Below, piece by piece: positions 3,709 to 56,433 of a stretch of 64,000 nt of DNA (its first letter is position 1; each line of letters begins with the position of its first letter). The DNA lies in contig JBAXOY010000001.1 of NCBI GenBank assembly GCA_037133055.1, positions 32,236 to 96,235 on the forward strand, given 5' to 3'. A program made the position numbers and the translations under genes. This DNA comes from Chlamydiota bacterium (GTDB lineage Bacteria > Auribacterota > Tritonobacteria > UBA1439). The notes under the pieces were generated by a model. That model saw nothing but the letters and a program-made list of their open reading frames with translations. It was not told where the DNA came from and ran no database searches.

Positions 3709-4986
3709 TCACCGAACCTCGTCCTCGAGCGTGCCCCCCCGCGCCTGGACCCACGCTGCCTCCGCGAGCCCTTCCGCCCAGCAGGCGTCGAGGAACGTGT
3801 TCTTGGCCCTCACCAGCGAGTCCTCGATGATCGTCCAGTTGTCGAAGCTGAGGAGGCCGATCGAGTACTGCGCCCGGGAGATCTTCGCCCGCTCCTCGGC
3901 CGCGGCAAGAACCTTCCGCTGCACGTCGACCTGTTCGATCGCGTTGCGGAGCTTCGTCCACGTATCCGTGAGCGTCAGCACCACCCCGTTGCGGCCGCTC
4001 TGCTCGTCGGCCTCGGTCTGAAGGAGGATATCCTTCGACCTCGCAACCTCGGCGACGCGCAGCCCCCCCTCGTAGAGGGGCCAGTTCATGCTGATGCCGA
4101 TGTCCTTCTCGTCGCCGCGTGCGGGCCAGCCCGGCCCGGCCTTGTTCACCCCGATCGACCCATAGACCTGGGGGAAATAATCCGAGTACGACGACTTCAC
4201 TCCCCATCGCGCCGCCTCTTTCTGCGCGGCGAGCTGGTGAAGGAATGGATTAGTCTCGCAGAGCCCCTCGAAATCGGGCCTCTCCGGCCCCGGGGCGTCA
4301 AGGGCGAAGTCGCCGCCGGTCTTCAGGGGCGCGGAGTGCGGTCTCCCCATCTCCTTGGTGAGGCGCCTGCGCCCGAGCTCGATAGCCCGGAGCGCCGCGG
4401 CGACGTCGTACTCCGCCTGCGCAAGATCGGCCTGGGAGAGCATCAGGGATCCCTTGTGCTCCCTTCCGGCCTCGTAGCGGAGCGTCACGAGATCCGTGTT
4501 CTGCTTCCTCCGGTCGGTGATCTCCCGCGTGATCGTCACGAGGTCCTGCGCCCTCAGCAGGTCCACGTACGCGTTCCGGAGCCTGAGTCGCACGTCCGAG
4601 GAGGTCACAAAGTAGGCCCAGCGCGACGCGGAAATCCCCTCCCCCGCCTTCCCCATCTCGAACGGGGTCTTGAATCCATCGAAGAGGAGTTGCCGGGCGT
4701 CGAGCCCGAATACATGCGCTTCCCCGACGATGCCATCCGTGCCCTTGGCCTTCGTGTCGCCGGCGGAGGCATTCACCTGGGGAAAGAGGGGGCTCGCCGC
4801 GATCCTGCGATCGGCCTTCGACTGACCCAGTTTCGCGAGCGCCGCGGCAAGGTCGGGGTTCTGCCGCCACGCCTCCCGCACGCACTCCCGCCAGGCGATC
4901 GCCTCGCCGGTCTCTTCCGCCCCCGCGGGGGCGGGAAGAGCCGCCAGGGAGGCCCCAAGGCAGAGCAGCAGCGCGTGTGCCTTCAT
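3709..4986 (-). CDS. TolC-family outer membrane efflux protein
   Basis: Signal peptide MKAHALLLCLGASLAALPAPAGA. Two coiled-coil/beta repeat halves typical of outer membrane factor (OMF) proteins. First gene of a tolC-macA-macB operon. Confidence 0.8.
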   Translation of the reverse strand: MKAHALLLCLGASLAALPAPAGAEETGEAIAWRECVREAWRQNPDLAAALAKLGQSKADRRIAASPLFPQVNASAGDTKAKGTDGIVGEAHVFGLDARQLLFDGFKTPFEMGKAGEGISASRWAYFVTSSDVRLRLRNAYVDLLRAQDLVTITREITDRRKQNTDLVTLRYEAGREHKGSLMLSQADLAQAEYDVAAALRAIELGRRRLTKEMGRPHSAPLKTGGDFALDAPGPERPDFEGLCETNPFLHQLAAQKEAARWGVKSSYSDYFPQVYGSIGVNKAGPGWPARGDEKDIGISMNWPLYEGGLRVAEVARSKDILLQTEADEQSGRNGVVLTLTDTWTKLRNAIEQVDVQRKVLAAAEERAKISRAQYSIGLLSFDNWTIIEDSLVRAKNTFLDACWAEGLAEAAWVQARGGTLEDEVR

Positions 4987-10611: not shown

Positions 10612-10685
10612 GGAATTGGCGAGAGCGTCACCCGGCTCATTCCGTTGCGGTTGCACTCCTTGAGAGTATCATCCTTTTGAGATCT

Positions 10686-10699
10686 GGGATTTGGGATTT
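10686..10699. repeat. (GGGATTT)2 heptanucleotide tandem repeat (locus a)
   Basis: TGGGATTTGGGATTT lies between the SBP stop and the ATPase start of the minus-strand ABC operon. Overlaps the SBP stop codon. Confidence 0.8.
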
Positions 10700-11941: not shown

Positions 11942-11980
11942 GGGGATTTTTTGGATTTGGGATTTGGGGTTTGGGATTTC
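11942..11980. repeat. Degenerate (GGGATTT)~5 tandem repeat (locus b) in divergent promoter region
   Basis: GGGGATTTTTTGGATTTGGGATTTGGGGTTTGGGATTT. Sits between the SBP start (11780, minus) and the BMC-H start (12080, plus). Confidence 0.8.
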
Positions 11981-12079
11981 CCATCCAGCACTCTCCCCTT
12001 GACCCCCTCCGCGGCGCTGTACTATGATGTGCCCCTGTTTCACATGCGCGCGGCGCACACATCAGCGGAGGATCACACA

Positions 12080-12370
12080 ATGGCCGAAGCACTGGGAATG
12101 ATCGAGACGCGCGGGTTTGCCGCCATGGTGGAGGCGTCGGACGCCATGGTGAAGGCGGCCAAGGTCGAGCTCGTGAGCTACGAGAAGATCGGCGGAGGGT
12201 ACGTCACGGCGATCGTCCGCGGCGATGTCGCGGCGGTGCGCGCGGCGGTGGAGGCCGGGGCGCGGGGCGCGGAGAAGGTGGGAGAGCTCGTCTCCGTCCA
12301 CGTGATACCGAGGCCGCACGTCAACGTGGACACGGTTTTGCCGCTCGGCCGTCCGCATCCGAAGGACTGA
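12080..12370 (+). CDS. Bacterial microcompartment shell hexamer protein (BMC-H; PduA/EutM/CcmK family)
   Basis: [60 protein letters not shown]...[10 protein letters not shown] is near-consensus for PF00936. GGAGGA SD 8 nt upstream. Confidence 0.88.
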
Positions 12371-12410
12371 TCCCGGCCATCCCCTTCTTTTTTCCGTGAA
12401 TCCTTGCCTT

Positions 12411-12440
12411 TTGGGATTTGGGATCTGGGATTTGGGATTT
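12411..12440. repeat. (GGGATTT)4 tandem repeat (locus c), intercistronic
   Basis: GGGATTTGGGATCTGGGATTTGGGATTT between BMC-H stop and BMC-P1 start. Four G3 tracts spaced by 4 nt. Confidence 0.85.
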
Positions 12441-12455
12441 ACCCCGGAGGGGTTC

Positions 12456-12767
12456 ATGCAGCTCGGCAGAGTGGTGGGTTCGGTCGTCTCGACCCGGAAG
12501 AGCGAGAACATCCAGGGGCTGAAGCTCCTCCTGGTCCAGCAGCTCTCCCACGGCGGGAGCGCTCTCAAGAACTACGTCATGGCGGTCGACGTGGTGCAGG
12601 CGGGGACCGGCGACGTGGTGCTCTACTCCGAGGGGAGCTCATGCCGGCAGACCGCCCAGACCGACAAGCGGCCCGTGGACGGGGTCGTCATGGCGATCGT
12701 CGACACGTGGGAAGTCGGAGGCAAAGAGGTCTATTCAAAGTCGCGCGAGGACGGCGCATCGAAATGA
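12456..12767 (+). CDS. BMC vertex pentamer protein (BMC-P; EutN/CcmL/PduN family), paralog 1
   Basis: MQLGRVVGSVVSTRKSENIQGLKLLLVQQ... matches PF03319 N-terminus. GGAGGGG SD 5 nt upstream. Confidence 0.8.
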   Translation: MQLGRVVGSVVSTRKSENIQGLKLLLVQQLSHGGSALKNYVMAVDVVQAGTGDVVLYSEGSSCRQTAQTDKRPVDGVVMAIVDTWEVGGKEVYSKSREDGASK

Positions 12768-13036
12768 AAATCGGGAAAGTAATCGGCACGGTGGTGGCGA
12801 CCCGGAAGGTGGAGTCGCTGAACGGCGTCAAGCTCCTCCTCGTCCAGCCGCTCGACGAAGACGGAAAGCCCGCGGGCGAGCCCGTCGTCGCCTGCGACAG
12901 CCAGCAGTCCGGCCCCGGGGAGACCGTCTTCTTCATCGGCGGCCGCGAGGCGTCGCTGCCCCTGCCGGAGCCTTTCAATCCCGCCGACGCGGCCATCACC
13001 GGGATCATCGACGCCGTGACAAAGGACGCCCCATGA
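12764..13036 (+). CDS. BMC vertex pentamer protein (BMC-P), paralog 2
   Basis: MKIGKVIGTVVATRKVESLNGVKLLLVQPL... ATGA start/stop overlap with paralog 1. Confidence 0.8.
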   Translation: MKIGKVIGTVVATRKVESLNGVKLLLVQPLDEDGKPAGEPVVACDSQQSGPGETVFFIGGREASLPLPEPFNPADAAITGIIDAVTKDAP

Positions 13037-13362
13037 AGATCGGCACCGTCATCGGCACGGTGGTGGCGACCCTGAAGCCCGAGGGGTTCAACGGCCGCAA
13101 GCTCCTCCTCGTCCGCCCCGAGGACCCGTACGGGAAGAAGACCGAGACCCCGGTGATTGCCGTGGACACGGTCTCTGCGGGGGAGGGCGACCGGGTGATC
13201 TTCGTGGACGAGGGGAACTCCGCGCGGCAGGTGCTGGACTGGAAGGACGGCTGCGTGCGCGCCGTCATCGTGGGCTACATCGACGAGATCGACATCCCAC
13301 GAAATCCCAAATCCCCGGATTCAAATCCCAAATCCCAAATCCCGAATCCCAAGAAGAAGTAG
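13033..13362 (+). CDS. BMC vertex pentamer protein (BMC-P), paralog 3, with repeat-encoded C-terminal tail
   Basis: MKIGTVIGTVVATLKPEGFNGRKLLLVRPED... ATGA overlap with paralog 2. Last ~21 aa (PRNPKSPDSNPKSQIPNPKKK) are encoded by the (AAATCCC)n repeat. Confidence 0.75.
   Translation: MKIGTVIGTVVATLKPEGFNGRKLLLVRPEDPYGKKTETPVIAVDTVSAGEGDRVIFVDEGNSARQVLDWKDGCVRAVIVGYIDEIDIPRNPKSPDSNPKSQIPNPKKK
13302..13352. repeat. (AAATCCC)~7 tandem repeat (locus d; reverse orientation of GGGATTT)
   Basis: AAATCCCAAATCCCCGGATTCAAATCCCAAATCCCAAATCCCGAATCCCAA. Inside the 3' end of BMC-P3. Confidence 0.85.
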
Positions 13363-13495
13363 GTTCCCGCTATGCCTCTTCTGTGACGCCAAGGGTGCCT
13401 TGCGTCGTCGGGATTTCGCTTCCGCTGATTGAGAAGACCCTCCAGGAGAGGGGACTGCCGGGGACCCGGATAGGAAGAGAAGGGTGTGTCTCTTT

Positions 13496-13522
13496 GATTT
13501 GGGATTTGGGATTTGGGATTTT
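13496..13522. repeat. (GGGATTT)~3.5 tandem repeat (locus e), inverted relative to locus d
   Basis: GATTTGGGATTTGGGATTTGGGATTTT. Overlaps the proS stop codon (minus strand). Confidence 0.85.
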
Positions 13523-55767: not shown

Positions 55768-55847
55768 GGGGACGGGTCTTCCCGGGAGGGGAGCTGAAAA
55801 ACCCCGCGCGGATCACTATCGGATGCACGGCAGGGAGGGTGTACACC

Positions 55848-56405
55848 ATGGCGAACGCAGTCGATCTCAGAAGGGGGGTGGCGATCCTGTACCAGGGAGC
55901 GCCGCATGTCATCACCGAGTACCAGCACGTCACGCCGGGAAACTGGCGCGCCTACGTGCAGGTTTCGATGCGCAATGTGAAGACGGGAAACTCGACGCAG
56001 GCGCGGTTCAGGACATCGGAGACCGTGGAGCTTGTCGATCTCGAGAGCCGCAAACTCCAGTACCAGTACCGCGACGGGGACGGCTACAACTTCATGAATC
56101 TCGAGGATTTCAGCACCGTCGTCCTTTCCCCCGCCGTCGTCGGCGAGGCCGCGCGGTATTTCAAGGAGGGCGACGAGATCAAGGGCCTCTTCCACGGCGA
56201 GGAGCCGATAGAGCTCGAACTCCCCACGAGCGTGGTGCTGAAGGTGGTGACGACCACGCCCGGCTTCAAGGGGGACTCGGTCAACAATCTTCAAAAGCCG
56301 GCGACGCTCGAGACGGGGTACGAGCTGAACGTGCCGCTCTTCATCAAGGAGGGGGAGATGGTCAAGGTGGACACGCGGACCGGGGGGTATCTGGGGAGGG
56401 AGTGA
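55848..56405 (+). CDS. efp: Elongation factor P
   Basis: Full-length three-domain EF-P similarity. GGGAGGG SD 7 nt upstream. Loop tip reads TPGNW rather than KPGKG. Confidence 0.85.
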   Translation: MANAVDLRRGVAILYQGAPHVITEYQHVTPGNWRAYVQVSMRNVKTGNSTQARFRTSETVELVDLESRKLQYQYRDGDGYNFMNLEDFSTVVLSPAVVGEAARYFKEGDEIKGLFHGEEPIELELPTSVVLKVVTTTPGFKGDSVNNLQKPATLETGYELNVPLFIKEGEMVKVDTRTGGYLGRE

Positions 56406-56407
56406 TT

Positions 56408-56433
56408 CAAATCCCAAAACCCAAATCCCAAAA
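56408..56433. repeat. (AAATCCC)~3 tandem repeat (locus f)
   Basis: CAAATCCCAAAACCCAAATCCCAAAAG. Begins 3 nt after the efp stop. Confidence 0.8.

Follow-up and report, generated by a model that had tools for sequence, protein, structure and literature searches.

The 64,000-nucleotide stretch of contig JBAXOY010000001.1 analysed here (hereafter the window) carries an operon for the shell of a bacterial microcompartment (BMC), in which the gene of a hexameric shell protein, BMC-H, is followed by three EutN/CcmL pentamer genes, BMC-P1, BMC-P2 and BMC-P3, each consecutive pair overlapping by ATGA (Table 1). In the spacer between BMC-H and BMC-P1 (the H-P1 junction) lies a short array of tandem GGGATTT heptamers, array C, which is the subject of this work. 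On the sense (+) strand of the operon, positions 12413-12440 read GGGATTTGGGATCTGGGATTTGGGATTT. Tandem Repeats Finder described 12410-12440 as a repeat with a period of 7 nt, 4.4 copies and 91% matches, and the four G3 tracts at 12413-12436 on the sense strand conform to the canonical G3N4G3N4G3N4G3 pattern of a G-quadruplex (G4). The array begins 39-42 nt past the BMC-H stop codon and ends 5 nt ahead of the BMC-P1 Shine-Dalgarno (SD) sequence (GGAGG, 12446-12450) and 15 nt ahead of the ATG; a lone GAATCC half-unit is also present in the spacer at 12398-12403. The sequence, Tandem Repeats Finder and the Pfam matches of the flanking genes confirmed that, as a first-pass annotation had noted, a four-tract motif separates the hexamer cistron from the first pentamer cistron and starts about 40 nt after the BMC-H stop; the distance of 15 nt which it gave to the SD is, however, that to the start codon.

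The sigma-70-like promoter of the shell operon has the block TTGACY-N15-TACTATSAT, also found in L122, L123, L125, L204 and L205 and in variant forms in L126, L203 and L212 (L numbers are our labels for the sequences compared). Since this conserved promoter lies upstream, array C is transcribed in its G-rich sense. A contingency role as a phase-variable simple sequence repeat was rejected, as the array lies between cistrons, outside both promoter and open reading frame (ORF), and array D (Table 1) changes no more than the C-terminal tail of BMC-P3. At gathering thresholds Rfam gave no match anywhere in the window.

Hexamers must greatly outnumber pentamers in a BMC shell, and the way in which an operon achieves this ratio is understood only in part; in natural and engineered shells alike, a cis element located between the hexamer and pentamer genes would be a useful handle. 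The regulatory G4 that had been proposed for this motif held up in part: the G-rich sense is transcribed, four G3 tracts are present and they lie close to the ribosome-binding site (RBS), but the placement is not special to this junction and the four tracts are not conserved among relatives with the same operon. Array C is one copy of a dispersed family, and the four tracts are frequently missing from close relatives; a dedicated hexamer:pentamer switch is therefore an improbable role for it. We consider it probable that array C belongs to a family of heptamer repeats which are prone to slippage, are capable of G4 formation and accumulate at permissive gene boundaries, that this family has colonised the locus, and that the occupant of the H-P1 junction turns over between relatives. 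Membership of the family, turnover at the junction and copying between arrays were observed directly, as described in the following paragraphs.

The first line of evidence came from the window itself. With at most one mismatch allowed, 15 matches to the 12-mer GGGATTTGGGAT were counted in the window, where 0.58 were expected; 100 shuffled sequences all gave fewer. These matches group into six arrays of 3.4-7.3 units each, in both orientations. Five of the six lie within 2.85 kb, array F being the sole copy outside the 10.6-13.5 kb cluster, and a further 9.2 kb of contig (GCA_964409435.1) contained none, so that array density is based on 73 kb of the source genome. The unit variants GGGATTC and GGGGTTT fit the pattern GGGANTN, and GGGATCT departs from it at position 6. 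The G4 pattern alone is unremarkable, since generic four-tract G motifs occur 19 times on the two strands of this 66% GC window; the unusual feature is the heptamer periodicity.

Table 1. Coordinates of the shell operon, the H-P1 junction and the six heptamer arrays in the window.
Feature	Position	Strand	Evidence or context
BMC-H (hexamer)	12080-12370	+	PF00936, E=2e-31
BMC-P1 (pentamer)	12456-12767	+	PF03319
BMC-P2 (pentamer)	12764-13036	+	PF03319
BMC-P3 (pentamer)	13033-13362	+	PF03319
Sigma-70-like shell-operon promoter, TTGACC ... TACTATGAT	11999-12028	+	Promoter scan
BMC-H to BMC-P1 intercistronic spacer, 85 nt	12371-12455	+	Pyrimidine-rich tract, array C, SD
ACCCC-GGA-GGGGU mini-hairpin containing the BMC-P1 SD	12441-12453	+	Predicted folds and junction sequences of relatives
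Array A, 3.4 units	10676-10699	+	Adjoins the stop of the minus-strand Bmp substrate-binding-protein gene
Array B, 4.4 units	11949-11979	+	About 20 nt upstream of the shell-operon -35; divergent Bmp/shell-operon region
Array C, (TTTGGGA)x4.4	12410-12440	+	GGGATTT GGGATCT GGGATTT GGGATTT; G-rich in operon mRNA
Array D, 7.3 units	13302-13352	- (G-rich strand)	C-terminal tail of BMC-P3 (..NPKSPDSNPKSQIPNPKKK)
Array E, 3.7 units	13496-13521	+	Adjoins the proS stop; inverted pair with D, 143-nt spacer
Array F, 3.7 units	56408-56433	-	2 nt past the stop of the + strand ORF 55839-56405

In their own mRNAs, arrays A, D, E and F appear as (AAAUCCC)n, and all four are located at stop codons; only array C is G-rich in a known transcript. 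Array A, C-rich in the Bmp mRNA, also stands 20 nt ahead of the start of an ABC ATPase gene. Several of the sites are occupied in relatives: L210 has an array at the site equivalent to A, L204 carries three units at the position of B, and L123/L124, L125, L204 and L205 have arrays at the site of D, which reads AAAUCCC in the operon mRNA. At the site of array A, in the spacer past the Bmp stop, L210 (a relative of 75% identity) has an inverted set of two C-sense and two G-sense short arrays (L210:1160-1357), the last of which adjoins the Bmp stop.

The second line of evidence was the comparison of the junction among relatives. Homologues of BMC-P1 retrieved from metagenomes and assemblies gave 12 lineages with an H-P1 junction, the window included, most of which keep proS downstream; judging from the annotations on homologues of ~80% identity, these lineages probably belong to Candidatus Auribacterota, in the PVC group. 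At least four tandem units were found in three of the 12 (the window, L125 and L205). One lineage (L123/L124) has two units, a 26-nt insert, and then two and one further units, three (L203, L204 and L211) have a single unit on either side of a GC-rich hairpin insert of 40-75 nt, and the remaining five (L122, L126, L208, L210 and L212) lack an array. The two closest relatives, L203 and L204 (BMC-P1 94% and 92% identical, respectively), are both in the one-plus-one state; the four-tract state itself is thus unconserved, even in the nearest relatives.

The same 26-nt insert occurs, in inverted orientation, in both the C and the D arrays of L123/L124, and in L205 it is present only in D, which shows that sequence is occasionally copied between nearby arrays. 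Composite arrays, in which GC-rich hairpin inserts of 26-75 nt separate the units, were found at L203:3224-3290, L204:1598-1690, L211:2925-2995, L123:6340-6410 and L125:5094-5166. Examples are GGGATTT-gtcccgccat...atggcgggct-tGGATTT and GGGATTT-gcctgcc...ggcaggcgg-GGGATTT, and the insert sequences differ between sites; either small hairpin elements insert into arrays, or unit-flanked hairpins seed them. Other junctions of the operon hold repeats of their own. In lower-GC relatives a hairpin element of ~70-80 nt (gcacctgatc...gatcaggtgc) is found at the P1-P2 and/or P2-P3 junctions (L125:4314-4382 and 4657-4725; L205:4312-4382 and 4655-4725; L211:3725-3796; a variant at L204:2288-2359), and L123 and L206 carry another repeated element at these same junctions. 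The intercistronic gaps of the shell operon are repeatedly colonised by small repeats. It is worth recording two unusual relatives as well: in L206/L207 (BMC-P1 79% identical) P1-P2-P3 stand beside proS with no BMC-H upstream, P1 being preceded by a Na/Ala symporter gene, and there are no heptamer arrays; in L122 (3440-3655) the BMC-P3 homologue stops at residue ~77 and runs into a RelA/SpoT TGS-domain-like sequence, so that this is probably a chimeric metagenome contig.

In contrast to the tandem units, another feature of the junction recurs with or without the array. CCCC is found just upstream of GGAGG(G) at BMC-P1 in L122, L123, L125, L126, L203, L204, L205, L208, L211 and L212, with only TCC in L210. 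The BMC-P1 SD is partly buried in this CCCC/GGGG hairpin, unlike that of the BMC-H leader, a strong, unstructured GGAGGA kept across the clade. In a wider set of 71 related BMC loci the length of the H-P1 spacer was bimodal, either about 0-27 nt or, in 25 loci, 45-117 nt, and most of the long spacers were predicted to fold at -30 to -59 kcal/mol in calculations that were not shuffle-controlled. A structured H-P1 boundary would thus be common, given these 25 loci with long spacers and mostly low predicted folding energies. A sense-strand four-tract motif occurred in the H-P1 spacer only in the window, L125 and L126.

These comparisons bear on the possibility that an RNA G4, r(GGGAUUU)4, lying upstream of the BMC-P1 RBS attenuates initiation or blocks 3'-5' decay, leaving BMC-H output above that of BMC-P. 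A canonical four-tract motif in the mRNA sense only 5 nt from the SD is what such an attenuator would look like, and the intact 4-unit arrays of L125 and L205 at the same site, as well as the long and mostly low-energy spacers of 25 of the 71 loci, are consistent with it; so are the K+-dependent G4s formed in vitro by oligonucleotides of related heptamers. The loss of the tandem tracts in L203 and L204 and the absence of any array in five of the 12 lineages argue against it. In its sequence context the G4 gained no advantage in the folding model either. With the G4 terms of ViennaRNA, whose G4 parameters are approximate, the isolated core of array C was slightly more stable as a G4 (-8.4 kcal/mol) than as a hairpin (-7.2 kcal/mol), but in contexts of 121 nt and 261 nt its minimum-energy structure contained no G4. 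The fold of the 85-nt spacer (-28.5 kcal/mol) was no better than that of shuffled sequences (z=0.07). A specific hairpin at the junction, in which the array would form the 3' arm, was likewise discarded, as the folds of the window, L125, L123, L122 and L126 resembled those of dinucleotide shuffles (z from +0.3 to -1.2).

Two further observations weigh against an attenuator. Of the six copies in the window, four present the C-rich sequence in their own mRNA, and in three lineages a G-sense array of four units stands 6-7 nt before the start of proS, where there is no recognisable SD (L123:8150-8190, L125:6905-6945 and L205:7720-7772, minus strand). As proS is presumably an essential gene, this placement implies that a G-sense array is no strong block to translation. 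RNA G4s are also reported to be depleted or unfolded in bacteria. Taken together, we regard the G4 attenuator as rather unlikely at this junction. In the window, proS has no array at its start, which lies 10 nt past the stop of an upstream BKACE-family gene.

Pairing between arrays was considered next to folding within array C. Arrays D and E could pair into a 3'-end hairpin working in both directions, by which the convergent transcripts of the shell operon and of proS would be terminated or stabilised, and a duplex between C and D would bracket the pentamer genes, providing an RNase III-type stem or occluding the RBS. The predicted duplexes are about equal, -51.7 kcal/mol for C:D and -50.4 kcal/mol for D:E, and a D/E stem of ~26 bp, followed by UUUUAUU, is predicted in transcripts of either strand. 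In support of such pairing, the 26-nt insert that L123 carries in both C and D gives ~54 nt of complementarity, the order AAATCCC...GGGATTT prevails 7 to 1 among the inverted pairs listed from other genomes, and Rehm et al. described convergent pairs of heptamer repeats together with more transcript ends at the G4-capable ones. In L205, however, D has the insert and C lacks it, so that C and D have not stayed complementary; selection for long-range RNA pairing between them was rejected on this ground, and the shared inserts were reread as copying between arrays. Furthermore, the patterns of C and D differ in the window, where D is interrupted, and D is translated, so that ribosomes would melt a C:D duplex. 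The 143-nt loop between D and E is unlike that of an efficient intrinsic terminator, a scan for intrinsic terminators found no terminator-like site in 12371-12455, and arrays A, B and F are single, without a partner. A function based on paired arrays therefore seems unlikely to us.

The D/E region has some features of its own. The last ~25 residues of BMC-P3 (..PRNPKSPDSNPKSQIPNPKKK; window 13287-13362) fall outside the Pfam domain (residues 1-84) and are the translation of array D. This tail differs among relatives, being array-encoded in L125, L123, L204 and L205 and a non-repeat, basic, proline-rich sequence in L126; a disordered C-terminal extension has thus had its coding sequence invaded by a heptamer repeat. 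The 143 nt between the two arrays (13353-13495) are predicted to be highly structured, and the 3' part of this interval (ctgccgggga...gggtgtgtctctttgatt) is common to L204, not to L125 or L123.

Alternatively, the arrays might be bound, as DNA or as single-stranded RNA, by a protein that recognises their sequence, which would make them a local regulon or a set of insulators for the shell genes, Bmp and proS; candidates would include a GGA binder resembling CsrA and a cold-shock-domain protein whose footprint is ~7 nt. In line with this proposal, five of the six arrays mark the edges of transcription units in a segment of 2.85 kb, and array B lies just upstream of the -35 element, here and likewise in L204. 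Moreover, the four GGA motifs of array C and a fifth in the loop of the SD hairpin (ACCCC-GGA-GGGGU) have the geometry of a classic CsrA target, and MacGregor (2015) proposed S1, Csp or CsrA for arrays of the heptamer TAACTGA. Against it, the arrays occur in both orientations relative to transcription, so one RNA-binding protein cannot read all copies; tblastn found no CsrA homologue in the 73 kb examined, the heptamer is spread across unrelated phyla without a shared candidate binder, and occupancy varies between close relatives. We therefore hold protein binding to be quite unlikely as the reason for these arrays.

The third line of evidence, and the one which places array C in a wider family, was a scan across phyla using one genome per species and the pattern GGGATYT x3, which needs three near-perfect units. 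It found at least 120 loci in many phyla, against ~2 expected by chance according to our own estimate. The details that follow, here and in the next paragraph, refer to the matches listed, and their gene contexts were taken from crude ORF calls made with simple heuristics. The matches include Acidobacteriota, Planctomycetota, Verrucomicrobiota, Cyanobacteria, Bacteroidota, Chloroflexota, Patescibacteria and Xanthomonadales, among others, and several other genomes have at least 2-4 loci each. The number of units peaked at four (122 arrays); arrays of three, four and five units accounted for 34, 55 and 20 of 131 array segments, respectively. Much longer arrays than the usual 3-6 units were also encountered: 42 units of GGGATTT in the Desulfonema magnum chromosome (L080:3042-3335), at least 35 units in a Clostridia metagenome-assembled genome (MAG; L091:4171-4425, L109:238-356), and 17-20 units in Kuenenia and Oscillochloris MAGs (L014, L015).

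Intergenic copies were found between convergent genes in 29 cases, between co-directional genes in 27 and between divergent genes in 6 (n=62). Arrays faced stop codons more often than start codons (93 vs. 44), and 23 lay within 10 nt of a stop codon against 4 within that distance of a start codon. Within ORFs the C-rich sense predominated over the G-rich sense (34 vs. 9, p=2e-4), and the median distance to a downstream start was 254 nt for G-sense and 69 nt for C-sense copies (p=0.014). This avoidance of the G-sense in ORFs and near starts fits an inhibitory effect of G-sense copies and, like the peak at four units, could be counted in favour of the G4 attenuator discussed above; RNA is nevertheless not the only possible cause of the strand bias in ORFs, since the encoded peptides differ too. 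Seven of the eight inverted pairs had the order AAATCCC...GGGATTT, each array often adjoining a convergent stop codon, and the D/E pair of the window shares this convergent layout. A role of stop-adjacent C-rich arrays as Rho-utilisation sites was not favoured, as stop-facing arrays showed no strand bias (44 G-sense vs. 49 C-sense).

The history that we consider probable for array C could be outlined as follows. Arrays of (GGGATTT)n most likely arise and change length by replication slippage, to judge from the literature on this class of repeats, and would persist where they do little harm, that is, past stop codons, in the spacers of convergent genes and in gaps between cistrons that are not translated. 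In a lineage that is probably of the Auribacterota they have spread to the borders of the Bmp / BMC-H-P-P-P / proS region, where relatives differ in what occupies the H-P1 junction: an uninterrupted 4-unit array, a split one, a composite of unit, hairpin and unit, a GC hairpin by itself, or no element at all. At most, array C might add a mild, lineage-specific damping of BMC-P1 initiation, through a G4 or through ordinary pairing. That pentamer output is kept below that of the hexamer would most plausibly result from the uncoupled spacer and the recurring CCCC/GGGG hairpin at the BMC-P1 SD, and not from the G tracts. Attention thus shifts to these recurring features, an uncoupled spacer and a mini-hairpin that sequesters the SD.

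Several of our own results nonetheless weigh against this account. Under a uniform model, finding five of six arrays in 2.85 kb of 73 kb has a p of ~6e-5, and a purely neutral genome-wide repeat does not predict such clustering. An array in some form is present at the junction in seven of the 12 lineages although identity at third codon positions is only ~0.6 (window vs. L123/L125), which implies that some array persisted or re-formed over considerable divergence; its recurrence could reflect selection rather than inertia. The mode at four units and the avoidance of the G-sense suggest that the G-rich sense has real molecular consequences, and the crude ORF calls behind the gene contexts must be taken into account as well. 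A bolder proposal would be that the GGGATTT repeats form a family of elements which is actively propagating, whether as simple arrays or as unit-hairpin-unit composites, and which in Auribacterota serves as modular boundary elements (G4 or duplex insulators) where transcription and translation units begin or end. We give this proposal little credence; if it were true, the H-P1 copy, possibly together with array D, would tune pentamer versus hexamer output, and the four-unit optimum and strand avoidance across phyla would amount to a general G4-based constraint on bacterial gene expression.

The positions of these arrays recall the REP/BIME elements of enterobacteria (repetitive extragenic palindromes and the mosaic elements that they form), dispersed short repeats at gene 3' ends and in intercistronic gaps, often in inverted pairs that form hairpins, which can make the mRNA upstream of them more stable and shift the relative expression of genes in an operon. 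REPs are imperfect palindromes with a unit of ~20-40 nt and are linked to RAYT transposases. An identity with REP/BIME was rejected because the units of the arrays are direct tandem heptamers without an internal dyad, and only positions and pairing are alike; no RAYT transposase gene was noticed here.

Closer to the G4 itself, work of the Hartig laboratory on designed constructs in E. coli, as summarised in PMC4692102, indicates that a G4 near the SD can lower or raise expression depending on its exact position and strand, which is how the G4 proposed for this junction would act. The G4 motif of array C, however, excludes the SD, and the orthologous sites do not keep four tracts. Among natural repeats, TAACTGA direct repeats of marine Beggiatoaceae, cyanobacteria and Bacteroidetes (MacGregor 2015, PMC4679880) form arrays of 2-6 copies, sometimes dozens, that are dispersed, intergenic and patchy across distant phyla; a post-transcriptional role is suspected, and binding of S1, Csp or CsrA was proposed. 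The proS-leader arrays of L123, L125 and L205 resemble those TAACTGA arrays which are placed before start codons instead of an SD. TAACTGA differs from GGGATTT in that it lacks G tracts, contains stop codons and is mainly start-proximal in the forward orientation, whereas GGGATTT is mainly stop-proximal. The GGGACCG x4 elements of Geobacter metallireducens, 49 copies between and within genes for which a regulatory RNA role was proposed (Aklujkar et al. 2009, PMC2700814), share with GGGATTT a G3 heptamer, typically four tandem units and multiple copies; their unit is GC-rich and known from a single genome.

The best match was found in the G-rich heptamers described by Rehm et al. (2015, PMC4692102), namely GGGAATC / (GGGANTN)n in Xanthomonas and GGGGA(C/T)T in Nostoc. 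The Xanthomonas repeats number ~185 copies per genome, with four units preferred in a range from 2 to >20. The repeats are 89-93% intergenic, with only 7-8% between divergent genes, and lie near or overlap stop codons. Xanthomonas genomes contain 70-75 pairs each in convergent, inverted arrangement, and transcript ends are more numerous at repeats capable of G4 formation. Transcripts of both strands were found, ORFs carry the G-rich strand in their coding sense less often than the other, and the study assigned no function to the repeats. As DNA oligonucleotides, (GGGAATC)3GGG, (GGGATTG)3GGG and (GGGGATT)4 formed K+-dependent G4s in vitro, with a T1/2 in 100 mM KCl of 50 C for (GGGAATC)3GGG and >74 C for the Nostoc-derived oligonucleotides, including (GGGATTG)3GGG (PMC4692102). 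By its likeness to these heptamer oligonucleotides, the GGGATTT unit is itself a candidate for G4 folding.

The GGGATTT arrays share with the repeats of Rehm et al. a 7-nt unit with a G3 tract that fits GGGANTN, the peak at four units, the intergenic bias, the rarity between divergent genes, the closeness to stop codons and the convergent inverted pairs, and in both cases array positions are common to related genomes while lengths vary. These matching properties identify array C as a member of this known class of heptamer repeats. The differences are that the G tract is followed by ATTT and not AATC, that the repeats were found in a probable Auribacterota MAG and in many other phyla, that the copies are clustered in 73 kb rather than evenly spread, that the stop-adjacent copies of the window are all C-sense, whereas in the Rehm repeats the G-sense is closest to stops, and that GC-rich hairpin inserts interrupt several of the copies in relatives. 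In summary, our survey extends the G4-capable heptamer repeats from Xanthomonas and Nostoc to the GGGATTT unit and to many more phyla, and the shared preference for four units and strand avoidance strengthen the case that these repeats have real molecular consequences.

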